DNA of 64,000 nt. Origin: Candidatus Woesearchaeota archaeon. Its GTDB lineage: Archaea; Nanobdellota; Nanobdellia; Pacearchaeales; GW2011-AR1. Positions 22,445 to 50,276 of the stretch are shown here, piece after piece (positions within the stretch are counted from its first letter, which is position 1; each line of letters begins with the position of its first letter). A program made the position numbers and the translations under genes. The notes below the pieces were generated by a model. The model was not told the DNA's origin and searched no databases. It was given only the letters and a program-made list of their open reading frames with translations. The DNA lies in NCBI GenBank assembly GCA_964448605.1, contig CAYUZV010000002.1, positions 39,804 through 103,803 of the forward strand, read 5' to 3'.

Positions 22445-22613
22445 GTTTTTATAATATTCTCATTTAATTTAATTGTCCTAGCTAACCGTTGTTACGATGT
22501 GAGCTAGGTTATACGCTTATTTACTATGGGAGCCTCGCTCTTATAAAATACAGCCGTGACACCTAGCGTGTGAAATGGCAGTGCCAAAATAAGTAAATAA
22601 GCTAACTTAGTCG

Positions 22614-22708: not shown

Positions 22709-24142
22709 TCACAAACTAGGACGTTTTTTATTTTTCTTAAATTTTCTTTTAGACTTGATACTTGCCATAACACAATCAATATCATCATAAGAAATAGTGT
22801 CATCTTTTAATTTCTTTTTAATATCTCTTAATCTTTCTTTGTGGCTGTAAATTTTATTTAAGATTTTGTAAATTTTTTCTCTCGGCAAGACTTCCCATAC
22901 TGATAATTGTTTATGCTCTATTAGATTGATTAAATGACTCCAAACAGTTGATTCTTTAATCCCATATTTTGTGGCAATGTCTTTTACGCTGAGACCTTTT
23001 CTGTAATGAAACAAAGTCTTTTGAACGGAATATTGTAATTCGCTTTCATTAACTTTTTTGATGTAATTGATATACTTTCTTTTGTTGTGAATAAATAATT
23101 TATTGCCGTGAGCAAAGAACCTGTTAAAATTTTTAAGCAAATATCTTCGATATTTGTAAGTGTTTGCATGAGAGCAATAAGCCAACCAACCTTCCAAAGC
23201 TTCTAATGATTTTTGTCTTCCAATAATGCCTTCATCAAATAGGATTCTTAAATGATTAAATTTTCTTCCAAAATTTTTGAGATTGCTTTTTCTAATAAGT
23301 TTATGATAATAAAAAACTCTAAAACCTAAAAAGTTTATTCCACTATCTAATCTTAAAACATTTGATTTGCTAGGGTGCAACTCTATTTTTAATTTTTCTT
23401 TTAGGAAATTGTCTATTTTTATTTTCCATTCATCGAGTTGAGCCTTAGACTCATGCAGAATCACAAAATCATCAACATAACGAATATAATATTTTGCTTT
23501 TAATTTATGCTTTACAAATTGGTCTAATTCATTGAGATATAAATTTGCGAAAAATTGGCTAGTCAAATTTCCTAAGGGCATGGCTTTTGATTTATTGTTG
23601 TAAGAAAGTATTGTTTCTATTAACCAAAGAACTCTTTTGTCGTTGACTTTCTTTTTAATTAGGTTTATAAGAATTTGGTGGTCAACTTCTTCAAAATAAT
23701 GTTTTATATCTGCTTTCAGCACAAAACATTTTCTTGTGTTATTTCGAGAAACTTTTCTTTTGAATTTGTCAAATCGTTCTAATGCTTTTAAAGTTCCTTT
23801 GCCGATTTGGTTTGCATGAGAATCATAAATAAATGTTCTTTCGAACATAGGAGAGATAACATCAATTAGGGCGTGATGAACAACTCTATCCTTAAAGATA
23901 GCTTTGCTTATTTTTCGTGTTTTCGGGTCTCTCAAAGTAAATGTTTTCAAGGAATGAGGTTCATAAGTTTGTTTAATAAGTTCTTCGTGCAATCTTTTGA
24001 GATTCTCTCTAAGATTCTTTTGAAAACGTTTTACATATCTTCTCTTTGACTTGCCTTTCTTGGCGTTTTTGAAAGCAAGGAGTAGATTATCAATACTACA
24101 TATTTTAGTAAAAAGGTCGTCTGATTTTTCTTTTGGTTTCAT
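22709..24142 (-). CDS. DGR-type reverse transcriptase with C-terminal HTH extension
   Basis: PLGNLTSQFFANLYLN (the LGxxxSQ motif typical of DGR RTs) and YIRYVDDFVIL. The C-terminal about 110 aa contains LSVKDIATKYGIKESTVWSHLINL. Confidence 0.85.
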   Translation of the reverse strand: MKPKEKSDDLFTKICSIDNLLLAFKNAKKGKSKRRYVKRFQKNLRENLKRLHEELIKQTYEPHSLKTFTLRDPKTRKISKAIFKDRVVHHALIDVISPMFERTFIYDSHANQIGKGTLKALERFDKFKRKVSRNNTRKCFVLKADIKHYFEEVDHQILINLIKKKVNDKRVLWLIETILSYNNKSKAMPLGNLTSQFFANLYLNELDQFVKHKLKAKYYIRYVDDFVILHESKAQLDEWKIKIDNFLKEKLKIELHPSKSNVLRLDSGINFLGFRVFYYHKLIRKSNLKNFGRKFNHLRILFDEGIIGRQKSLEALEGWLAYCSHANTYKYRRYLLKNFNRFFAHGNKLFIHNKRKYINYIKKVNESELQYSVQKTLFHYRKGLSVKDIATKYGIKESTVWSHLINLIEHKQLSVWEVLPREKIYKILNKIYSHKERLRDIKKKLKDDTISYDDIDCVMASIKSKRKFKKNKKRPSL

Positions 24143-25110: not shown

Positions 25111-25181
25111 GGGTGATTAGGCTAGTGGCAAACCATCTCGCTTACATCGAGAATTCACCAGTTCGATTCTGGTATCACCCA
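25111..25181 (+). tRNA. tRNA-Val (UAC), copy 1
   Basis: Acceptor GGGTGAT/ATCACCC, anticodon arm TCTCG-CTTACAT-CGAGA, T arm ACCAG-TTCGATT-CTGGT. 71 nt. Confidence 0.8.
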
Positions 25182-25329
25182 TATAACTAAATAAGACTCA
25201 AAATTGATATAACAAAAGTTATTAATAAAAATAGTAGAACTTTGTTATACTTGTTTACACAAAGTATATCCAAAAGGATATACTCTCTAAATGGGAAGAA
25301 AATGCCATTGGACTTAAGAGGCTAAATAA

Positions 25330-25400
25330 GGGCGATTAGGCTAGTGGCAAACCATCTCGCTTACATCGAGAATTCACCAGTTCGATTCTGGTATCGCCCA
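25330..25400 (+). tRNA. tRNA-Val (UAC), copy 2
   Basis: Identical to copy 1 except for the acceptor pair 4:69 (C-G instead of T-A). Confidence 0.8.
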
Positions 25401-28189: not shown

Positions 28190-28919
28190 TTTTAATAGAA
28201 ACAAATCAAAAGTTGAAAGAATAGGTGGAAGAAAAATAATCTCCAAAGAACACCAAAAACTAATTTTTTTAAAGAGAGAAGAATATTTCTATAATTTTTT
28301 CAGAAACAATCAATTTATTAAAACTCCTGACATTTATTCTATTGAAGGATTGAATATTAAAACATCTTTTGTTGAGGGGGAAGAAAAGAATACTCCTCTT
28401 GCAATAAAAGATTGGGCAAAAATTCATAATTATTTTATTGAACATCCCCTAGAAGAGAATAAGTTATTTATGCAACATGATATAAATCAGGTTTCTAGAT
28501 ATTTATTACAGCATGAAGATATCTCTAATATCCTGGGTAAAAAGATTGAATGTAAACTTAATGAAATAGATTTAAATGCCTCTATGAAAACATTGTTACA
28601 TGGAGATTTAACACCAAAGAATTTTATTTTTTATAATAATGAGAATTATTATTTTGATTTTGAATTAGGAGGCATAGGGCATCCTGCTAGAGATCTAGCT
28701 TCCTTAATTATCTCGAACCTTAGAAAAAAAGAAAAGTTGGTTAATCATTACAAGGATTCTTTTAGTCATGGTTATGGTGGTTTAGAAGAGGACATCGATA
28801 ATTGGACATTTGTCAGAGCATCTCAATTATATTTTATTTTTGATAAAAGAGAAGGTGGTGAAAAACAAAAAAATAAAATTAAGAATAATCTTATAGGAAT
28901 CATAGAAACTCTTGTTTGA
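28182..28919 (+). CDS. aminoglycoside/choline-kinase-family phosphotransferase
   Basis: LLHGDLTPKNFIF (catalytic loop) and DFELGGIGHPARDLA. Confidence 0.65.
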   Translation: MDNFNRNKSKVERIGGRKIISKEHQKLIFLKREEYFYNFFRNNQFIKTPDIYSIEGLNIKTSFVEGEEKNTPLAIKDWAKIHNYFIEHPLEENKLFMQHDINQVSRYLLQHEDISNILGKKIECKLNEIDLNASMKTLLHGDLTPKNFIFYNNENYYFDFELGGIGHPARDLASLIISNLRKKEKLVNHYKDSFSHGYGGLEEDIDNWTFVRASQLYFIFDKREGGEKQKNKIKNNLIGIIETLV

Positions 28920-29050
28920 TTAAAATCTTTTTTTTAAACAAATGAACTCTCAATGGATAAAAGAACCCTAAATGTTTTATTTAATGGATTATTGGATGAA
29001 GTTGATGGAAATTATGGAGAAATCAATTTCGAGAGCTGAATTAAGAAAGT

Positions 29051-29112
29051 ATATCCTTTATGATATAATCTTTTACACCGAGTAGTCCGAAGTTCGATTC
29101 TTCGATGGCCCA
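29051..29112 (+). repeat. tRNA-Val 3'-half-like repeat R1 (left arm type A)
   Basis: atatcctttatgatataatc + TTTACAC-CGAGT-AGTC-CGAAG-TTCGATT-CTTCG-ATGGCCC-A. No 5' half upstream. Confidence 0.75.
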
Positions 29113-29154: not shown

Positions 29155-30234
29155 ATGAAAATTTATTTAATTAGGCATGGAGAAAGTATTGGAAATGCAA
29201 AAGGCATTCATCAAGGTCAAAAAAACGACTTTTCATTAAGCGAATCTGGAAAAAGTCAGGCCGAATTATTAAAAAAAAGATTTGAAGATATAAAAATCGA
29301 TGCTGCCTATTCATCTGACCTTAAAAGAGCAAAAGAAACAGCTGAATTTATATCAAAATCTAGAAATATAAAATTAATTATAGATAAACGGTTAAGAGAA
29401 AGAGATTTTGGATTAATTGGAGAACAAAAAGATATTATGTCTTCATGGAAAGATTTTTTACAGTATGAAACAAAAAAAGGAGTAAATCCTAGAGAAGCAC
29501 GACCTATTGATGGAGAAAGTGATAAAGATCATTTTGATAGGGTATATTCTTTTTTTGAAGATTTAAAAAAGAATCATGATGAAAAAGAAACAGTTTTAGT
29601 TGTTGGACACGGAGGAACAAACAAAGTTACCTTCGGAGTTATAGAACATTTTTCAGAGAAAGAAATGTATAAAACACCTCAAGCAAATACATGCGTTAAT
29701 GAGTTAGTCTTTGAAAACAATAAATGGATAGTAAATTCTATCAATAATACAGATCATCTAGAAATAGATGATGAAATAATAGGGATATTTAATAGCGTTA
29801 GAGACGAACCTTTAGATGTCATTAATAATCGATGCTGGGAAAAACATATAAAATTAAAAAAACTTTTTGATGATAAGGGATACAAAACAAAATATAAAAT
29901 TTGTTCTTTTAAATGGTCTGAGCAAAAGTTACCAATAGAAATAAAAGATTTAGTAGATAATGATTTAGACTATCATCTGTACTTGATAGTTAAGATTAAT
30001 GGTCTAAAATTACTAATAGATGCATCAAATGATTTTCAACTCCCTGAATATAATACTTGGAATGGAAAGAATAACTGCAATTTATGTATTTCTCCAGCAG
30101 AGTTTATTGAAGAAAATCTAGAAGAAATTTTAAATAAAAAGATTAAGGAGAAATATTCTAGTAATCAGATTATTTTTTTGAATGAAGTAAACGCTTTTCT
30201 AAAAAAGTTAAGAGAGAAAAGATATAAGAATTAA
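29155..30234 (+). CDS. histidine phosphatase (PGAM-like) fused to an unknown C-terminal domain
   Basis: LIRHGESIGN and VVGHGGTNK motifs in the first about 200 aa. The C-terminal 150 aa are unassigned. Confidence 0.6.
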   Translation: MKIYLIRHGESIGNAKGIHQGQKNDFSLSESGKSQAELLKKRFEDIKIDAAYSSDLKRAKETAEFISKSRNIKLIIDKRLRERDFGLIGEQKDIMSSWKDFLQYETKKGVNPREARPIDGESDKDHFDRVYSFFEDLKKNHDEKETVLVVGHGGTNKVTFGVIEHFSEKEMYKTPQANTCVNELVFENNKWIVNSINNTDHLEIDDEIIGIFNSVRDEPLDVINNRCWEKHIKLKKLFDDKGYKTKYKICSFKWSEQKLPIEIKDLVDNDLDYHLYLIVKINGLKLLIDASNDFQLPEYNTWNGKNNCNLCISPAEFIEENLEEILNKKIKEKYSSNQIIFLNEVNAFLKKLREKRYKN

Positions 30235-30251
30235 TTTTGAGCCGAAATTAT

Positions 30252-30809
30252 TTATGCATCTTTGGGCAAATAAGATCTGATAATTCTTATTACTTCTTCT
30301 GGAGAATTTAACTCTGTATCTATATCTATTCCTTCTGAATGCTGATTTCTCACACAGAACTTATATATTTCTGTTGCAGTTTTCTCATTTCCTGCAGGGA
30401 GAGGCCATTCTCCTATTGCCATCTTTTCCTCTAATGAAAAATTTCTTCTCTCTTCGACTCTTTTAATTAAAATATTTAAAGGAGCAATTAATTTAAAATA
30501 ATGACTTTCTACCCCTACTTTTTTTGTTAGATCTTCAAAAGGTCTAACATATTCATAACTGCCAAATGCCTTGTCAACAATAACTGGATGTCCTGCTGTA
30601 AGATAATTTCTAGTTAAGGATAATGCATTATTTCTTGCTAAATCTAAAAAATAATCATTGGATTTTGCTCCTTTTACAAAATGTTTAATTGAATCTAAAC
30701 TTAAATAAGCGGGATTTCCATTTAATACTTCCCAAAGTTTTTTTGCAGTTGTTGATTTTCCACTTCCAGAAGGACCTGAAATTATCAAACAATAAGGTTT
30801 AACATTCAT
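30252..30809 (-). CDS. P-loop kinase-like ATPase
   Basis: Walker A: IISGPSGSGKSTTAKK. Confidence 0.55.
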   Translation of the reverse strand: MNVKPYCLIISGPSGSGKSTTAKKLWEVLNGNPAYLSLDSIKHFVKGAKSNDYFLDLARNNALSLTRNYLTAGHPVIVDKAFGSYEYVRPFEDLTKKVGVESHYFKLIAPLNILIKRVEERRNFSLEEKMAIGEWPLPAGNEKTATEIYKFCVRNQHSEGIDIDTELNSPEEVIRIIRSYLPKDA

Positions 30810-31560
30810 ATTTACCTCCTAACTTTCTTATTGTTTCTCCAAAAAAGGTTGAGACACATCTTTCTAATTCTCCCAAATCTGCCATAAAATGGAATTCTGG
30901 GGGAAACTCTGATTTTTCAACGACAACATTTGCTTCGCTTAAGATAGTTTTTATCATAGGTGTTTTTACAAATAATCTCTTTATTTCTGGAAATGTTTCC
31001 ATTGAAAAAAAGTTATTTGGAACTACATATGGGACATCAAGATAGACTTCGCCTTCATTTAAATGTTCTAAACAATCATATCTTGTTACATCTAAAACTC
31101 TTAATTTATTATCTATTGTGGCAATCTTACAATTATTTTCAGATAAAGATTTAAAACCAGATAGAACCAATGTTTCAGAATTATGTGAAAGAAGTTTTTT
31201 TAGGTGGCTATCTGAAACTAACTGGTTTCCAAAGAATATTAAAACTTTATCAGATCGACATAACCCTCCTGCTTCATAAAATGCTTGAACAGGCCCTCTT
31301 GGCAAACCCTCATAAATCTGATAATTTTTTATTCCTTGCGTATTATATATCTCCTCAAATTTAGGTTTTAATTTAGGATTATCAATTGCTAAAATGATTC
31401 TTGAGTTTGGAACAACTTTTCTAATTGTATCTGTTAAATAGCCTATTGCAGGTATTCCTAAAATTGGGACAAGAGATTTACATCCACATTTTTGAGTTAT
31501 ATTTTTCATTCTAGAACCCTTACCTCCACAAACAATTATTGAATCTATACTATCTTCCAT
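30799..31560 (-). CDS. nucleotidyltransferase (NTP-transferase fold)
   Basis: IIVCGGKGSRMKN...KSLVPILGIPAIGY N-terminal signature. Confidence 0.6.
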   Translation of the reverse strand: MEDSIDSIIVCGGKGSRMKNITQKCGCKSLVPILGIPAIGYLTDTIRKVVPNSRIILAIDNPKLKPKFEEIYNTQGIKNYQIYEGLPRGPVQAFYEAGGLCRSDKVLIFFGNQLVSDSHLKKLLSHNSETLVLSGFKSLSENNCKIATIDNKLRVLDVTRYDCLEHLNEGEVYLDVPYVVPNNFFSMETFPEIKRLFVKTPMIKTILSEANVVVEKSEFPPEFHFMADLGELERCVSTFFGETIRKLGGKYEC

Positions 31561-31723
31561 ATTTGATTGGAGAAAGGATGTTATAAATAACTTTCTATTA
31601 TTGTAACTATAAAGTTACTAAATTATCTTGTTTGGGTTTAATTAATGAGAATTCTATAAAGAGCATAACATTATTACTAAATATGGTTAAATTTCTCTGC
31701 AAATAATTAACTTGTTACAAATA

Positions 31724-31785
31724 ATATCCTTTATGATATATTTTTTTACACCGAGTAGTCCGAAGTTCGATTCTTCGTGGGACCA
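31724..31785 (+). repeat. tRNA-Val 3'-half-like repeat R2 (left arm type A)
   Basis: Identical to R1 over caccgagtagtccgaagttcgattcttcg. The acceptor strand is TGGGACC-A. Confidence 0.75.
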
Positions 31786-31914
31786 TTTCTAAGAATTTTG
31801 TATAGAAAGTTTTATATAATTTATTAGTTTATTTTTATTGTGAGGTGATGGTACCTCAGAAGCCTTATTCTGAACAACAATAAATTTTAAATAAAATAAA
31901 CATGCAGAAATACC

Positions 31915-32139
31915 ATGGAATATAGTGATATAAGCCAAAGCGACTTTATAGAATCTGCAGCTTACCTTACAGGTGAAGATAACATAACTTATGGTAAAGG
32001 CACTTGTGCTGCACCATGTAAGAGTTGTGGTGGGGGTTGCTATGGTTGTAAAGGAAGTAATACAAGCAAAGGAGCTTCTGCTTCTTTAGAAGGCAGAGAA
32101 TCAAAACTTGCAGAGATGGTTGAAAGCGTACTTGAATAA
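31915..32139 (+). CDS. 74-aa Cys/Gly-rich candidate azoline-type RiPP precursor
   Basis: Core GTCAAPCKSCGGGCYGCKGS. Sits directly upstream of the YcaO gene. Confidence 0.55.
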   Translation: MEYSDISQSDFIESAAYLTGEDNITYGKGTCAAPCKSCGGGCYGCKGSNTSKGASASLEGRESKLAEMVESVLE

Positions 32140-32141
32140 AT

Positions 32142-33361
32142 ATGGATTTAGAAACCACTCTTAGCAAGTTTAAGATACTCGAAGAGAATTCTAGATTAGG
32201 TCTTCTTAGAAGGTCTTTTAATTTCACAGATGAACCAAAATTTTGGATGTATTCTTGTGTTTCTAGTAAAGGAAAATATGAAAGTTCCTCTCTAGATGAG
32301 GATAAGCAATTAGCAAAAGTTAAAGCATTAGGAGAGTATCTTGAGAGATATTGTTTAGATAATCCCCAACAAGATTTTTATTTTGGATCTTTTAATGAAC
32401 TAGAGAGTAGGGCAATTAATCCAATCGATTTTGTTAATTTCCGAGATTCTGATTTAAACTTTAGAAAGCAAGAATATTTAGAGAAGATTAAATCTTCTAG
32501 AATAAAATGGGTTAAAGGTAGGATTGAGCCTGACGGCTCAAAAATATTAATACCTGCCCAGTTAGTCTATGTTGATTATAATTTTGAGAGAGAGCCAATG
32601 ATTCGTCCAAGAGTAAGTACTGGAACTGCAACACACGAGTCTTTTGATGAAACATTTTATTCAGGGATCTTGGAGAATATTGAAAGAGATTCTTATATGC
32701 TTTCTTTTCTTTCAAAAAAACATCTTCCAAAAATAAATTTGAGAGATGGATTCTCTAAGGAATTGGATTATTTCAAGAGATATTTATTAGATTTACATGT
32801 ATTTGAAACAACTACTGAATTAGGTATTCCCAGTTTTATGTGTTTGAATTTGGATAAAACAGGATTAGTCCTGCTGTTTCTGTTGGATTAAAATCAGATT
32901 TAAATCCAAGGAAAGCAATAGTTGGTTCAATAAAGGAGTCACAACAAGTAAGGCAATGGATAAGAAATTTATGGATTCAAAGAAACGGACCAAAAATTTC
33001 AAGACCTGAAGAAATAAAAGAAATTGAAGATAGGGGTTTTTATTGGTATGATTTAGATAGAATTAACGATTTAGATTATTTATTAAATTCTTCTGATATA
33101 AAAGACGTTAGAGAAATTCAGTCTCAAGTTGAAAAAAAGAAAGATTTAGTTACATATTTAAAAAGTAAGGGAATTGATAGTTATTCAGTAGATTTAACTG
33201 CTGAACCCTTTAGAGAAGCAGGTTTTTATGTAGTAAGAGCAATCCAACCACAACTACATCCACTTTTTTTAGATGAGTCATTTCCTTGTTATTGGAGTGA
33301 AAGATTGGAGAAAGAATTAAATGGTCGTGAGGTTAATAAAACGCCTCATCCTTTTATGTAA
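32142..33361 (+). CDS. YcaO-domain cyclodehydratase, interrupted by a -1 frameshift between 32858 and 32888
   Basis: KALGEYLERYCL and STGTATHESFDETFYSGILENIERDSY motifs. The sense continues in another frame (SPAVSVGLKSDLNPRKAIVGSIKESQQ...) to the TAA at 33359-33361. Confidence 0.7.
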
Positions 33362-33362
33362 A

Positions 33363-34097
33363 ATGATAGACGAAATTAGAGAATTTTATGAAAGAACAAA
33401 ATTTAAGGTAGGAGAAGTAATTGAATGGGTAGATGACTATAAACCTCCTATTAATTGGGTTAAGATTTTCTTTAAAACCTATCCAAGAATGAAAAAAGTG
33501 GGTATGGATAGATTTGAAGATGATGGAGAGTTTTCTCGATTATTGAGTGAGAGAGAATCTACGAGGGAGTTTAGCGACTCGCCAATTTCTTTTGAAAAAC
33601 TAAATAAAATACTATTTTATTCTTTTGGTATAAAAAATCCAGATGTTTCATTGGAGAATACAAGAAGATTTTATCCTTCAGCAGGTGCAAGGTATCCTAT
33701 AGAAGCATATTTGCTAAACAATAATGTTGAAGGATTGGATAGGGGATTGTATCATTATAATTGCAAATCTAATGAGCTTGAATCTTTATTAGAAAAAGAT
33801 TTATCTTTAGAATCTTCCCGGATTTTTGGTGAAGCATATAAAGGCAGCCCTAATTTTATTGTTCTAAATGGAGTACTCAGTAGAACAGAGGTTAAATATG
33901 GGATTAATGCTTATAGATTTGCATTAATTGAATCAGGACATATAGGACAGAATATTTCGCTTTTAGCACAAAAAGAAAATGTAGGGTGCTGTGCTTTAGG
34001 GGGTTTTGATAATGATAAATTATCTAATTTGTTGGATATAAATCAAGAGGACGAAATACCTCTTTATGCCTTTTCTTTAGGTAGTTTAAAACAATGA
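33363..34097 (+). CDS. SagB-type (nitroreductase-fold) dehydrogenase
   Basis: RESTREF, YPSAGARYPIEAYLL, GLYHYN and IESGHIGQNISL motifs. Confidence 0.75.
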   Translation: MIDEIREFYERTKFKVGEVIEWVDDYKPPINWVKIFFKTYPRMKKVGMDRFEDDGEFSRLLSERESTREFSDSPISFEKLNKILFYSFGIKNPDVSLENTRRFYPSAGARYPIEAYLLNNNVEGLDRGLYHYNCKSNELESLLEKDLSLESSRIFGEAYKGSPNFIVLNGVLSRTEVKYGINAYRFALIESGHIGQNISLLAQKENVGCCALGGFDNDKLSNLLDINQEDEIPLYAFSLGSLKQ

Positions 34098-34699
34098 TCC
34101 TTAAATTCTTTAATAATTGAGTTCTCTCCAATTTTGTTTACAATTTCCCAAGACCGTTTATAACTGGGGTAGAAAGAACTCATTTCAATTTCCTCGTCTA
34201 GTCTACTTTTATCAAAATGCTCCTTTAATATTTTTTTGTGAATTGAATGGAGGAGTAAATGTATTGCAGTATCAAAATCTTCTTTTTTATATTTATCAAG
34301 AATAAACTCAAAATAATTTCCCATTTCTTTTTCATTTTGTATGAAAAGATTATGAATAATTTCATGCATCATCATATCCACAAATCTTTTAGGAGTTAAG
34401 GAAAAGGTTTCATCTTCTGATTCAAACTGAATAGGAATTGTTAAGGGGTCTGATATTGGCATTATTGAACTTATTTTAATTACATAGACTCGAATTTCTT
34501 CTTTCTTCCATTTTAAACCAGTAATCTCTTCACAAGAGTTTAAAACTTGCTTTTCTTTGTCTCTCCAAATATTTTTAACTTTTTCCAGATAGTGATCAAT
34601 ATGTTTTTGATATTTTTCATAGTCAAAATTTTCTTTCACAGTTGGGTTGTGTATTGTTTGTTCATAAATAAATGACCAAATAAAACTTATTTTTACCAT
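34064..34699 (-). CDS. putative zinc metallopeptidase (HExxH)
   Basis: MMHEIIHNLF motif. Convergent with the YcaO/SagB operon. Confidence 0.4.
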   Translation of the reverse strand: MVKISFIWSFIYEQTIHNPTVKENFDYEKYQKHIDHYLEKVKNIWRDKEKQVLNSCEEITGLKWKKEEIRVYVIKISSIMPISDPLTIPIQFESEDETFSLTPKRFVDMMMHEIIHNLFIQNEKEMGNYFEFILDKYKKEDFDTAIHLLLHSIHKKILKEHFDKSRLDEEIEMSSFYPSYKRSWEIVNKIGENSIIKEFKDHCFKLPKEKA

Positions 34700-34780
34700 A
34701 ATAAAACATATATTTTGGCATTTAATAAATTAACTCCCTCCCTCAAAGATTATTTCAGCTTCTTTCTTAAAAAGAAAGAA

Positions 34781-34917
34781 GCAAAAGTTCTATCTCAAAA
34801 TGTTACTAAAGGGATAATAATGTTTACACCGAGCAAAAGCATTTTTAGTAAAAAGAATTAAATAAGAAAATGCTTTTGGGAGCAGAGGATTCGGAAGTTC
34901 GATCCTTCCTAGGCCCA
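34781..34917 (+). repeat. tRNA-Val 3'-half-like repeat R3 (left arm type B, hairpin insertion)
   Basis: aaaagttctatctcaaaatgttactaaagggataataatg + TTTACACCGAG + hairpin caaaagcatttt..aaaatgcttttg + GGAAG-TTCGATC-CTTCC-TAGGCCC-A. Confidence 0.7.
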
Positions 34918-34940
34918 TATTAAATATATAGTCCAAAACT

Positions 34941-38192: not shown

Positions 38193-38331
38193 AGAACAAA
38201 AGTTCTATCTCAAAATGTTACTAAAAGGATAATACTGTTTACACCGAGCAAAAGCATTTTTAGTAAATATTATAAATAAGAAGATGCTTTTGGGAGCAGA
38301 GGATTCAGCAGTTCGATTCTTCGATGGCCCA
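38193..38331 (+). repeat. tRNA-Val 3'-half-like repeat R5 (left arm type B, hairpin insertion)
   Basis: agaacaaaagttctatctcaaaatgttactaaaaggataatactg + TTTACACCGAG + hairpin + ..TTCGATT-CTTCG-ATGGCCC-A. Confidence 0.7.
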
Positions 38332-38379
38332 TATTTTTGAAAAAGAAAGATTTTTAAATAACCTATTTATTGATTTAAA

Positions 38380-40258: not shown

Positions 40259-40945
40259 ATGAAAACAAAAATCATAGCAACAATCGGACCGAAATCCATG
40301 TCCTTGCAGATTATAAAACAAATGAAATCAAACGGGTTAGACATAGCCAGGATAAACACAAAATGGGGAAACGAAAAACAATGGAATACTATGATAAAAA
40401 ATCTTCAAAAATTAAAAATAGAAATTATGATTGATATAAAAAATTTAGATGTGATTAATTGGATAAACACTAAAAAAATAGATTATCTTGCAGTTTCATA
40501 TGCTCAAAATACAAGACAAATTAAAAATATAAAAGATTTAATTAAAGATAAAAAAATCAAGACTATCTCTAAAATCGAAACTGAGAAGGGTTTGGAAAAT
40601 ATCAATGAACTAATAAAGATTAGTGATGGTATTATGATTGCAAGAGGTGATTTATCAAGAAATATCTCTTTTGAAAAGGTTCCTTATTATAAAAAATTAA
40701 TTGTTGATAAATGCAATTCAAAAAGGAAATTTGTAATTGTTGCTACAGAAATGATGCTTTCAATGGTCAAATCAAAAATTCCAACTAATGCTGAAGTGGA
40801 TGATGTTTTTAGCTCGGTTGTTGATGGGGGAAATGCTTTAATGCTTTCAGAAGAAACAGCAATTGGAAAATATCCTGTTTTATCTATTAAAACTATGAAA
40901 AAAATAATAATTTATGCTGAGAAATATTTAGAAAAGAGAATATAG
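40259..40945 (+). CDS. pyruvate-kinase barrel-domain protein (228 aa; appears to lack the B and C domains)
   Basis: TKIIATIGPKS, IARGDLS, ATEMMLSMV and PTNAEVDDVFSSVVDGGNALMLSEETAIGKYPV. Confidence 0.6.
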   Translation: MKTKIIATIGPKSMSLQIIKQMKSNGLDIARINTKWGNEKQWNTMIKNLQKLKIEIMIDIKNLDVINWINTKKIDYLAVSYAQNTRQIKNIKDLIKDKKIKTISKIETEKGLENINELIKISDGIMIARGDLSRNISFEKVPYYKKLIVDKCNSKRKFVIVATEMMLSMVKSKIPTNAEVDDVFSSVVDGGNALMLSEETAIGKYPVLSIKTMKKIIIYAEKYLEKRI

Positions 40946-41421: not shown

Positions 41422-41500
41422 AGTTAATTTTTGAAGAAAGATTCAAAAGAATTTTTTCTAAAATTAAAGACTCGACATTAAAAGAAAAAATTATATTACA
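41415..41500 (+). pseudogene. 5' remnant of a RelE/ParE-like toxin gene cut off by repeat R9
   Basis: The ATG overlaps the antitoxin stop (atggtag). MVELIFEERFKRIFSKIKDSTLKEKII then runs straight into TACACCGAG. Confidence 0.4.
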
Positions 41501-41588
41501 CCGAGCAAAAGTATTTTCAGTTAAAGTATTAAAACAAGAAAATGCTTTTGGGAGCAGAGCATTCCGGGTTCGATTCCTTATGTGCCTA
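41495..41588 (+). repeat. tRNA-half-like repeat R9 (no left arm, hairpin insertion)
   Basis: attacaccgag + caaaagtatttt..aaaatgcttttg + ggagcagagcattccgggttcgattccttatgtgccta. Confidence 0.6.
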
Positions 41589-41834
41589 TTATCCATAAAC
41601 TTTTTCTCTTGTATCTATATCAAATACAATCCAGATATTATTTCTTAACTCTAACAAAACCCTGTATCCTCCAATTCTTAATCTAAAACAGCTTTTGTAG
41701 CCCTGTAATTTTTTTATATCAACTCTTTTTTCTTCTTGTAAATCTTTTAATTTTGAATTAATTAAATTTCTCATATTAAAAGGTAATTTAAAATATTTCT
41801 TTTTTACTTTTGAAGAGAACTCAATCTTTTTCAT
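41589..41834 (-). CDS. RelE/ParE-family toxin
   Basis: KLQGYKSCFRLRIGGYRVLLEL..NIWIVFDIDTREKVY. Confidence 0.6.
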   Translation of the reverse strand: MKKIEFSSKVKKKYFKLPFNMRNLINSKLKDLQEEKRVDIKKLQGYKSCFRLRIGGYRVLLELRNNIWIVFDIDTREKVYG

Positions 41835-48590: not shown

Positions 48591-49070
48591 TCAATGTTTT
48601 TCTATTGTGTTTGAGTTTCCATTTTTCAATACCATTCTCCATTTTTTAGAAGTTTTCTTTTTATTAAACCAGTTTTTGTTGAATTTTTTGAAGGTTATTT
48701 TAAAATTATTTCCATTAGAAGGGTCTGCTAAAATTAAATGAGTTTTTGTATATCCTTTTATAACTGAATAATGTCCTCTTTGGGATTGAGGGTTTATATA
48801 ATTTACAAGGACAGGGATTTTTTTGTCTATGAATTTTTTTATTTCATTTATTGAAGAATTGTTTTTTGCACTAACTCTGAAATTATTTTTTCTTGCTGTT
48901 TGAATGAGGATTTTGTGGCTTGTTCCTCTTCCTTTTACTGGATTGCATTGTTTTATTATTTTTTGAATTGGAATTTTTTTTCCATAATATTGAAAAATCA
49001 TTTTAAGAGAAACTGGTCCACAAGCTGAACTTCCTTTTTTTTGTGAGTAATGTTTTAGATTTATTACCAT
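48591..49070 (-). CDS. papain-like cysteine peptidase (C39-like)
   Basis: HYSQKKGSSACGPVSLKMIFQYYG (Cys context) and RGHYSVIKGY (His context). Confidence 0.5.
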   Translation of the reverse strand: MVINLKHYSQKKGSSACGPVSLKMIFQYYGKKIPIQKIIKQCNPVKGRGTSHKILIQTARKNNFRVSAKNNSSINEIKKFIDKKIPVLVNYINPQSQRGHYSVIKGYTKTHLILADPSNGNNFKITFKKFNKNWFNKKKTSKKWRMVLKNGNSNTIEKH

Positions 49071-49231
49071 TTTGGAATATAATCTTCACCTTCTATTCTA
49101 TTAGGTATAATTGAAACTACATTTATAGAATCTCCGTCAAAGTCCCTCACAGTTGTTCTTTTTATTCTGAATTCTGGTTGGTAGGGTTTTTCTTCTTGTT
49201 CTTGTGAGTAATTATTTCTTGGTGCTATCAT
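49064..49231 (-). CDS. 55-aa ORF between the ATP-grasp and peptidase genes (below the track cutoff)
   Basis: MIAPRNNYSQEQEEKPYQPEFRIKRTTVRDFDGDSINVVSIIPNRIEGEDYIPKW. Its stop overlaps the next ATG (atggtaa). Confidence 0.35.
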   Translation of the reverse strand: MIAPRNNYSQEQEEKPYQPEFRIKRTTVRDFDGDSINVVSIIPNRIEGEDYIPKW

Positions 49232-49232
49232 T

Positions 49233-50276
49233 TTAAACTGCTATTGCCTCCATTAAACATTTATTTTGAATATCTGCTTTAATTTGTTCTGCTATTTCTG
49301 ATGCTATTCCGTTATCTCCATAATTTCCTCTTGACAAATCAACTCCCACTAAACATCCAGGACTTACTGCATTAATCTCTCCTAAATAAGTTTGAGGAAA
49401 TTCCTCATCTCCTGAATAAAAGACATCTATTCCAGCCCAATAAACTTCTTTTTTACTTAAAAGAGGGTTTATTGAATCCACAATTCTCCAATCATCTTCT
49501 GTTAATTCTGTTTTTTGAAGAGAACCTCCTTGTTTTACATTGCATCTAAATTCACCTATGTCTGGAACTCTCATTACTGCACCATAAGGTTCTCCATTTA
49601 TTACATGAATTCTTTTATCTCCATAAATTCCTGGAATGTTTTCCTGTAAAATTGCTGGCTTAGTTTTATTTTCAGTTAATCTGTTACATAATGAAACTAA
49701 ATCTTCAAAATTTTGTTCATTTAAGTTTATTCTTTCTATTCCGTTTCCACCAAAACCATTAGCTGGTTTGTAGATTAATTTTTCATCTCCTTCTTTTATT
49801 CTTAAATACATAAATTCTGCAAGTCTTTCTGAATCTGAATCTGCAATTGTTGCTGGCAAAATTCCCGGATTTTCTCTTGCAATATCTTCAAGATAATTTT
49901 TGTTTCCAAAATATTTTTGAGATTCAGGTGAATTTATAAATAATCTTCTTCCATTATTGTATTTTTCTAATTCATCTAAAAAGTCTTTTCTTATTGGAGG
50001 GTCAAATCTCACTAAAACTATGTCTGCTTGTTCAGCTAAATTTGGATTAGGTGTTGTTGATAGTGCAATTTTAAAATAAGAATCTAATGCCATTATTCCT
50101 GCCAGATATCTTGTAGAATCTCCTTCTCTATCTAATCCTTCTTCATCAATATAGATAAGAACTTTTGCTCTGTTCTCTAAATCAGAATATGAATCTCCAA
50201 ATATCTCCTTGCTTCTTTCAGGAACAATTCCAATTGCTCCTCTTCCATTTTTTATTCTATAATTTCCGTTTGTCAT
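49233..50276 (-). CDS. ATP-grasp ligase (GshB/RimK-like)
   Basis: KPANGFGGNGI, DKRIHVINGEPYGAVMRVP..GEFRCNVKQGGS and GIDVF...YLGEINAVSPG. Confidence 0.7.
   Translation of the reverse strand: MTNGNYRIKNGRGAIGIVPERSKEIFGDSYSDLENRAKVLIYIDEEGLDREGDSTRYLAGIMALDSYFKIALSTTPNPNLAEQADIVLVRFDPPIRKDFLDELEKYNNGRRLFINSPESQKYFGNKNYLEDIARENPGILPATIADSDSERLAEFMYLRIKEGDEKLIYKPANGFGGNGIERINLNEQNFEDLVSLCNRLTENKTKPAILQENIPGIYGDKRIHVINGEPYGAVMRVPDIGEFRCNVKQGGSLQKTELTEDDWRIVDSINPLLSKKEVYWAGIDVFYSGDEEFPQTYLGEINAVSPGCLVGVDLSRGNYGDNGIASEIAEQIKADIQNKCLMEAIAV

Follow-up and report, generated by a model that had tools for sequence, protein, structure and literature searches.

What does a compact block of four genes, found between repeats in the chromosome of a small archaeon, produce, and how did it come to lie there? 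The block in question occupies positions 31794-34785 of the window analysed here, a stretch of 64,000 nucleotides of contig CAYUZV010000002.1. The window has about 29% G+C and its source was described as a low-GC, Pacearchaeota-like DPANN archaeon; homologues likewise point to a DPANN archaeon of the Pacearchaeota or Woesearchaeota kind. The DNA is chromosomal, and archaeal housekeeping genes surround the region, among them those for ribosomal protein S2, enolase, GatB/E, a TruB/Cbf5-type pseudouridine synthase, RNase J and a Rad50-like ATPase. An earlier note, written from the letters of the window, had proposed that the block encodes a peptide made by the ribosome and modified after translation (RiPP) of azole type, and the features on which it relied, namely a 74-amino acid open reading frame (ORF), YcaO motifs, a nitroreductase-fold ORF and a convergent HExxH ORF, were all found. 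Family models and precursor conservation support the combination of an azole-type precursor, a YcaO protein, a SagB-type dehydrogenase and a candidate HExxH peptidase. In our judgement the region is likely to be a biosynthetic cassette of this archaeon that is complete in itself, is horizontally mobile and serves to make a linear azol(in)e-containing peptide (LAP). We infer the azole chemistry of the product, and likewise its biological role.

YcaO relatives were sought in one genome per species. There were 303 of them, and the best 80 belong to DPANN archaea (Pace-, Woese-, Iain-, Aenigm- and Nanoarchaeota) and to the Candidate Phyla Radiation (CPR)/Patescibacteria; 79 related YcaO loci were taken for neighbour clustering, and single loci are designated here by L numbers. 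The YcaO gene of the window (32142-33361, plus strand) contains KALGEYLERY and ENIERDSY. It is disrupted by a one-nucleotide deletion, described below, and the following scores refer to the repaired protein. This protein matches the Pfam YcaO family PF02624 in its residues 55-373, at 9.6e-47. Its score is 215.2 bits on TIGR03604, the NCBIfam model of SagD-family thiazole/oxazole maturases (curated cut-off 219.25 bits), and 58.8 bits on TIGR03266, the methanogenesis-marker-1 model that represents the McrA-thioamidation type (cut-off 365 bits), and a YcaO kinase-domain model gives 33.5 bits. With a profile of 22 diverse relatives, the best matches among solved structures in the PDB are MusD, LynD and TruD (about 1e-29), with the thioamide-type MJ1094 (4e-20) and McbD behind them; the match to LynD extends to the C-terminus. 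The acidic ATP/Mg motifs, with residues E65, E68, R69, E178, E181 and R182, are invariant in the 22 relatives, and in the active site the E-x-x-ERD stretch, here ENIERD, lines up with ELVERD in TruD and LynD. A proline-rich extreme C-terminus with a PxPxP motif is typical of the YcaO proteins of thiazole/oxazole-modified microcins. The window enzyme ends in ..TPHPFM, and PHPF[L/M] is kept in about 75 of the 79 relatives, a PxPxx variant and not the strict PxPxP. Judged by sequence, the YcaO is closest to the azoline-forming cyclodehydratases and not to the McrA-thioamidation type. The earlier note had named grouping with non-RiPP YcaO proteins as the outcome that would speak against it; the scores of 215 and 59 bits and the nearest structures MusD, LynD and TruD show the opposite grouping.

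The next gene carries the sequences SAGARYPIEAYLL and GLYHYN and had been regarded as a nitroreductase-fold, SagB-type dehydrogenase. That assignment holds: the protein scores 118 bits on the SagB model TIGR03605 (cut-off 78.4) and matches Pfam Nitroreductase at 4.8e-21, its gene is coupled to that of the YcaO, the two being adjacent in 74 of the 79 related loci, and it retains K178-Y179, conserved at 98% and 100%, respectively, in 75 dehydrogenase sequences. The Lys-Tyr pair is catalytic in McbC (PMC8442711). The PDB relatives of the dehydrogenase, BmdC, CyaGox and McbC, are thiazoline oxidases. Because homologues are 243-244 amino acids long and start 1-2 nt after the YcaO stop codon, the start is most likely at 33363, 1 nt past that stop, and not at 33321, which gives a predicted FMN-dependent azoline dehydrogenase of 244 amino acids (33363-34097, plus strand).

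The 74-amino acid ORF (31915-32139, plus strand), with its Cys/Gly-rich stretch GTCAAPCKSCGGGCYGCKGS, ends 2 nt before the YcaO start at 32142. This arrangement recurs: an ORF of 70-79 amino acids lies directly 5' of the YcaO gene in every close locus, always 2-3 nt upstream. The product has a leader with QSDFIESAAYL, a core C-x3-C-x2-C-x3-C-x2-C (TCAAPCKSCGGGCYGCKGS) and a conserved C-terminal tail, KGASASLEGRESKLAEMVESVLE, that is, it has the leader and the Cys/Ser/Thr-rich core of LAP precursors and is encoded beside the modifying enzymes. The ORF is kept in 13 loci with pairwise ratios of nonsynonymous to synonymous substitutions (dN/dS) of 0.03-0.25, synonymous sites being close to saturation. 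It is a genuine precursor gene under purifying selection, and the lack of conservation that the earlier note had held out as a second point against its reading was not seen. The leader motif IE[N/S/D]A[P/A]Y is common to 25 archaeal loci, distant ones included, whose cores are unrelated, hypervariable Cys/Ser-rich strings; many archaeal precursors end in a SLE-K-V/L-E-like tail. CPR loci have another leader motif, DAKEF (11 loci), with Cys/Pro-rich cores. A conserved leader, a hypervariable core and a gene fixed beside a modifying enzyme together form a RiPP signature. Within the close clade the C-x3-C-x2-C-x3-C-x2-C core is nearly invariant, so these cassettes presumably yield one identical product. 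The window precursor itself has six lineage-specific amino acid substitutions.

Two TATA-like boxes lie upstream of the precursor gene, the distal one (AAAGTTTTATATAA) at 31807-31820 and the proximal one roughly 30 nt ahead of the ATG. Between the two boxes sits a non-coding hairpin element of 32 nt, GAGGTGATGGTACCTCAGAAGCCTTATTCTGA (31842-31873, plus strand), which is conserved in eight close loci and is 91% identical in L052, where the cassette is otherwise only distantly related. This element may act as a regulatory RNA, or a protein may bind to it.

On this basis the following pathway is proposed. The 74-amino acid precursor would be bound via its conserved leader (..DFIESAAYL..), possibly also via the conserved C-terminal tail. 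The ATP-using YcaO would then convert the five cysteines of the core, and perhaps Ser/Thr residues as well, by cyclodehydration to azolines, which the SagB-type flavoprotein would oxidise to azoles. Finally, the flanking peptide or peptides would be trimmed by the convergent HExxH protein.

The HExxH protein had been suggested as a leader peptidase. Its gene (34064-34699, minus strand; 211 amino acids) converges on the dehydrogenase gene, which its 3' end overlaps by 34 nt, and carries HEIIH. All of its 105 homologues are unnamed. H112, E113, H116 and H147 are invariant in 34 sequences of the family. An AlphaFold2 model, with a predicted local distance difference test (pLDDT) score of 95, places strands at 68-100 ahead of the HExxH-bearing helix at 103-121, and the best folds in Foldseek were the catalytic domains of M1 aminopeptidases and leukotriene A4 hydrolase (LTA4H), at E values of 0.6-3, which are not significant. 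A link to Wss1/SprT was dropped because the sequence profile reached only E of about 0.7-1 in the PDB, and a link to DUF2268 because hhalign aligned the HExxH helix alone, with a probability of 12%. The best argument for a processing peptidase is non-orthologous replacement: in the 79 related loci the third gene is an M16 peptidase in 23, a DUF2268 peptidase in 12 and a member of the 211-amino acid family in 9. A role as a leader or follower metallopeptidase is thus plausible for this candidate.

Several points weigh against an azole-forming cassette, the lesions taken up together with the frameshift below among them. The TIGR03604 score of the YcaO is 4 bits below the curated cut-off. The 211-amino acid protein has no Pfam or NCBIfam match and no significant sequence or fold relative. 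The near-invariance of the core in the close clade is less typical of antibiotic RiPPs, and no product has been observed from any member of this YcaO-SagB clade. Most characterised azoline-forming YcaO proteins need a partner protein (PMC7136475), and no E1-like, Ocin-ThiF-like or RiPP recognition element (RRE) partner was found here; tblastn gave no ThiF-like sequence in the 64-kb window (E > 0.6), and by Pfam and NCBIfam no E1-like, ThiF-like or extra domain is fused to the 406-amino acid YcaO or the 244-amino acid SagB protein. ThiF-like ORFs are near only about 4 of the 79 related loci, and in about 75 of the 79 none is fused or nearby. A partner may still be encoded in another part of the genome. 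The earlier note had raised the whereabouts of this partner itself while calling the gene set classic; the gene set is a minimal variant and not the classic one. With no partner to recognise the leader, there may be room for a different YcaO chemistry. Partner-free action is known from the standalone YcaO proteins of bottromycin and streptamidine, and this, together with the TIGR03604 score slightly under its cut-off, favours the idea that the YcaO modifies the backbone of this peptide in another way, for instance by thioamidation or amidine formation, and that the nitroreductase-fold protein has another role, as in streptamidine-type clusters. We consider this unlikely. The cassette has neither TfuA nor a sulfur-transfer gene, and TfuA is also absent from the recurrent neighbours of the related loci; the dehydrogenase retains KY whereas the streptamidine enzyme has HY; the Cys/Ser-rich cores suit azole formation; and the nearest structural relatives of the YcaO are azoline-forming. 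A small metal-binding protein that uses the C-x3-C-x2-C-x3-C-x2-C motif, in place of a modified-peptide precursor, would agree with the near invariance of that motif and both its flanks in the close clade and with the conserved, helix-like C-terminal tail. This is quite improbable, because distant members keep the leader motif and the place 5' of the YcaO gene while their cores are swapped for unrelated Cys/Ser/Pro-rich strings, which is the RiPP pattern, and the 74-amino acid product has no family match in Pfam or NCBIfam. Some database sources label the homologues 'ribosomal protein S12 methylthiotransferase accessory factor', and one survey read CPR YcaO proteins as methyl-coenzyme M reductase thioamidation enzymes, so that the gene might be a housekeeping, protein-modifying YcaO (for McrA-glycine thioamidation or as a ribosomal-protein accessory factor) beside an incidental small ORF. 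This reading is already close to refuted: the methanogen-marker score is 59 bits against a cut-off of 365, and the YcaO gene is carried, together with the genes of a SagB enzyme and a conserved Cys-rich peptide, by a mobile cassette of 3 kb that occurs in scattered lineages with differing flanking genes. The LAP cassette is thus the reading that we keep.

It has still to be weighed whether this LAP cassette works in the genome at hand. The presence of a YcaO gene, with its domain and motifs, was as the earlier note had stated; an intact single ORF was not found. Frame 1 runs from 32142 to 32891 (249 amino acids and a stop codon), and the rest of the gene, from 32869 to the stop codon at 33359-33361, is in another frame. 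Where homologues read GGACTAGGTCCTGCT, the window has GGATTAG-TCCTGCT, one G being missing after 32868. Restoring the base gives 406 amino acids, the length of more than 20 intact homologues, with 84-88% identity over 100% of the length. As assembled, the 1-nt deletion makes the cluster inactive. The frameshift reflects either a recent inactivation or an assembly or sequencing error. For an error, with a cassette that is fully functional here, speak the single-base size of the deletion, both YcaO halves, which are still open and conserved, and the dN/dS of 0.05-0.24 for all four genes of the window lineage, which resembles that of intact copies; in a test for relaxed selection the dN/dS of the three enzymes was not clearly raised. 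On the other side, the deletion lies at a GG dinucleotide and not in a long homopolymer, the public record annotates the 249-amino acid product (P0024) and the protein collection holds no intact identical version, and the window precursor has its six lineage-specific changes. The YcaO gene of L005, the nearest relative, has a premature stop (nonsense at codon 72) that is independent of the window deletion, and the gene of the 211-amino acid protein is broken in L001/L007, in addition to the broken YcaO gene of the window; these independent lesions in L005 and L001/L007 indicate that decay of the cassette is common. A check for an independent assembly across the frameshift site found none, and the exact 249-amino acid product was not on record in that check; L085, the sole identical contig, ends short of the site. 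Run SRR7048218 gives a contig that is 100% identical. We give the error, and with it a functional cassette, a substantial chance but one somewhat short of even; the cluster in this genome is real but probably inactive as assembled.

How did the LAP cassette reach its present place? It recurs in archaeal metagenome-assembled contigs of other samples: its nucleotide identity (blastn) is 84-91% to L001, L002, L005 and L006 and 71-74% to L003, L010 and L012. The similarity starts at 31791-31794 and stops at 34785 or 34699, no gene outside this stretch is shared between loci, and the flanks differ each time. These sharp ends and unshared neighbours make the 3.0-kb unit, delimited at 31794-34785 by the blastn end points against L001, L002, L005, L006 and L007, a discrete mobile cassette. 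The earlier note had described a repeat-bounded block, and direct repeats are indeed present at 31719-31789 and 34782-34921; they are copies of tRNA 3' halves. The left cassette end lies 6-9 nt past the left unit (31719-31789, plus strand; repeat family D1), which consists of a 27-nt box, AAATAATATCCTTTATGATATATTTTT, and a copy of the 3' half of tRNA-Val(TAC) from the anticodon loop TTTACAC to ..GGGACCA (end 31785). At 29072-29112 there is a sister copy whose 41 nt are all identical to the 3' half of a true tRNA-Val gene from another organism (L092). The right end, a perfect hairpin GCTTCTTTCTTAAAAAGAAAGAAGC followed by AAA (34758-34785), abuts a second type of unit (34782-34921, plus strand; repeat families D2, D4 and D6), composed of a box (…GTTCTATCTCAAAATGTTACTAAAGGGATAATAATGTTTACACCGAGC), a hairpin insert of 44 nt and a piece like a tRNA 3' half, which has an anticodon-like GGG loop and ends ..TAGGCCCA at 34917. 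Its sister copies are at 38197-38335 (about 90% identical) and 41490-41590 (degenerate). The repeat pattern had six matches against zero expected.

In other genomes the YcaO cassette is bracketed differently, by segmented inverted repeats. The left one, AAAATCTCTCTCAGCCATCCC ... GAGGTGCGCGCC, contains two UUCG-loop hairpins and the right one has the segments GGCGCGCACCTC ... GGGATGGCT ... AGAGAGATTTT; such flanks occur in L001 (3975-4174 and 7123-7260), L002, L005, L006 (5540-5654) and L051 (5472-5622 and 8767-8901). In L051 the same flanks surround a non-orthologous YcaO cassette with about 34-36% protein identity, and the 40 nt at 34746-34785 of the window are 97.5% identical to this locus. 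Evidently there was more than one route by which the module moved. Rfam gave no match at E <= 0.1 for the GC-rich flanks of L001, L002, L005, L006 and L051. Three other explanations were tried and rejected. That the bounding repeats are split-tRNA 3' halves is rejected for the window, in which no matching 5' acceptor halves occur; a position inside a giant tRNA intron (L001, L006 and L051) was not supported by ARAGORN, with introns up to 3.6 kb or with joined flanks; and IMG/VR, searched for viral carriage, has no relative of the YcaO. As an aside, the 21,700-bp contig of L001/L007 bears conflicting labels, 'Candidatus Heimdallarchaeaceae archaeon' in the protein source (P0006) and 'Candidatus Pacearchaeota archaeon Meg22_1012_Bin_115' in the genome record.

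The LAP cassette is one module of a larger island. At least 10 units of a box and a tRNA 3' half, some of them degenerate and of either the Val(TAC) or the GGG-loop type, split the stretch from 25.1 to 42.2 kb into modules (units at 29046, 31719, 34782, 36240, 38197, 39372, 39825, 40953, 41490 and 42140). The modules are a radical S-adenosylmethionine (rSAM) block, a His-phosphatase/kinase/nucleotidyltransferase block, the RiPP cassette and several toxin-antitoxin-like or small-gene blocks. The island stands beside a tandem duplicate of tRNA-Val(TAC) (25111-25181 and 25330-25400; 97% identical, 219 nt apart), and a palindromic box between the two copies, AAAGTATATCCAAAAGGATATACTCT (25261-25286), resembles the box of the half units. 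These resident tRNA-Val genes (25111 and 25330) have a 5' acceptor strand with which the tRNA-half copies would fail to pair. Comparable stretches are present elsewhere (L099 3645-7800 and L100 3276-7151). In L097/L099 a tRNA-Val gene is followed by five half units 0.6-1.2 kb apart, each with 1-4 small genes on the same strand, and then by a homologue of the His-phosphatase block; in a third genome (L100/L102) the His-phosphatase block is flanked by the same units. Thus the junction units recur in three independent genomes and flank the same His-phosphatase module, and the module order differs. No integrase or recombinase was found in the window, where about 55 ORFs were scanned with Pfam and the unannotated ones among them with PHROGs, or in L099.

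Read conservatively, the island is what remains of serial site-specific integrations that belong to the anticodon-loop class. As in islands at tRNA 3' ends, the direct repeats run from a tRNA-Val-like anticodon loop to the 3' end and lie beside full tRNA-Val genes, and as in integron arrays and tRNA islands, small modules stand in series, toxin-antitoxin-like pairs included. Unlike tRNA islands, an integrase was not found in the window or L099, the half copies mismatch the resident tRNA-Val, and the modules are as small as 0.6 kb; unlike integrons, the junction repeats are tRNA-3'-half copies and not attC-type sites, and no recombinase was detected. A more adventurous pair of linked readings, to which we assign only a slim chance, would combine a partner-free azole synthetase with an IESAAY leader and a C-terminal follower in DPANN and CPR organisms with the capture and reshuffling of ten or more small modules, this cassette among them, at tRNA-3'-half mimic sites downstream of tRNA-Val; such an integron-like system of Pacearchaeota would depend on a recombinase that is encoded elsewhere or is not yet recognisable. 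The recurrence of the junction units in three genomes, the His-phosphatase module that they flank in each, the differing module order and the mismatch of the half copies with the resident tRNA-Val bear on the second of these readings. The architecture of the island is a more unusual feature than the chemistry of the cassette.

The earlier note had placed the cassette about 3 kb from the rSAM cluster, in agreement with the end of the rSAM block at 28919, and had taken it to be unrelated to the neighbouring blocks, which is not fully safe. In L012 a His-phosphatase and a TehB-like methyltransferase are encoded directly 5' of the precursor and resemble genes of the neighbour blocks in the window, which hold homologues of both at 27-32% identity. 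His-phosphatase genes adjoin YcaO-SagB in 7-9 of the 79 loci (L012 1742-2824, L025, L028, L034, L044, L055, L078 and L082; the window block is at 29155-31560). The trio of His-phosphatase, AAA_33 kinase and nucleotidyltransferase is itself a conserved mobile module. A segment of about 7 kb with the His-phosphatase module is tandemly duplicated in L095 (4379-13095) and single-copy in the matching stretch of L093, which points to an element with tandem integration or amplification.

Some other features of the window were seen in passing. A reverse transcriptase (RVT_1 and HTH_40, 477 amino acids) is encoded beside an Rfam RT-16 RNA (71.8 bits); both lie upstream of the island and its tRNA-Val genes, at a distance of about 1 kb, the two stretches being 22477-22610 and 22709-24142 on the minus strand. 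Within the island, between repeat units, an ORF of 228 amino acids (40259-40945) matches only the C-terminal part of the pyruvate kinase barrel (profile 179-328, best stretch); it may represent a fragment of a gene or else a paralogue that has been truncated. A Peptidase_C39 protein (159 amino acids) lies beside a glutathione-synthetase-type ATP-grasp enzyme (347 amino acids) at 48591-50276 on the minus strand, which may be another peptide-processing pair.

Gene sets of this kind have been noticed before. CPR LAP clusters comprise a YcaO, a nitroreductase, a peptidase and a precursor; 110 clusters were reported in 93 genomes beyond the authors' own soil metagenome-assembled genome (Sharrar et al. 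2020, mBio, PMC7298704), and in 89 of these 110 the nitroreductase gene adjoins that of the YcaO (PMC7298704). Archaeal surveys list YcaO-type RiPP clusters in DPANN archaea, none of them characterised (PMC12144867). Our search brought up no paper that deals with this archaeal subfamily, with its leader motif or with the 211-amino acid protein. The family is known from bioinformatics alone, and the window locus adds one member. CPR LAP clusters share the architecture of a small precursor, a YcaO, an adjoining nitroreductase and a peptidase; their YcaO proteins are 30-37% and their SagB proteins about 40% identical to those of the window, at least 40 CPR loci were recovered with the window query, and neither product has been characterised. 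They differ in that the host here is archaeal, the leader has IESAAY instead of DAKEF, the C-terminal tail is conserved, and an unannotated HExxH peptidase family stands where CPR clusters have M16.

The systems for microcin B17 (McbBCD) and streptolysin S (SagBCD) likewise use a YcaO and a KY-motif FMN dehydrogenase on a Cys/Ser/Gly-rich core, and McbD and McbC are detectable relatives of the window YcaO and dehydrogenase. Unlike these systems, the cassette has no E1-like scaffold (McbB/SagC) with a leader-binding domain and no transporter or immunity genes. LynD, TruD and MusD, from the cyanobactin and muscoride pathways, are the nearest YcaO-domain relatives of solved structure at about 1e-29, and the oxidase CyaGox is related to the dehydrogenase. 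These heterocyclases are proteins of about 780 amino acids with fused N-terminal E1-like/RRE domains, whereas the window enzyme is a bare YcaO domain of 406 amino acids, and Pfam and NCBIfam scans revealed no macrocyclase-like gene among the cassette genes. The standalone YcaO proteins of bottromycin also act without a partner (PMC7136475), a likeness that does not come from sequence comparison. Unlike bottromycin, this cassette has a SagB-type dehydrogenase, a multi-Cys core and a conserved N-terminal leader motif. The bottromycin precursor has a C-terminal follower peptide and no N-terminal leader; the follower would parallel the conserved C-terminal tail found here.

In conclusion, the chemistry of this cassette is expected and its family had been noticed before; still, the system is compact, open to test and so far uncharacterised, and the modular island in which it lies is unusual. 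DPANN archaea and CPR bacteria share this YcaO-SagB clade, from which no natural product has been characterised, and we know of none characterised from DPANN archaea. The four-gene cassette is compact enough for synthesis and expression, and intact versions are available in L006, L002 and L003. It raises the questions of whether a YcaO and a dehydrogenase can form azolines and azoles without a leader-binding partner and what the HExxH protein does. Ultra-small, host-dependent organisms with much-reduced genomes still keep and swap this 3-kb peptide-modification cassette. Its retention and exchange in such genomes suggest that the product matters in interactions of the symbiont with its host or with its competitors.

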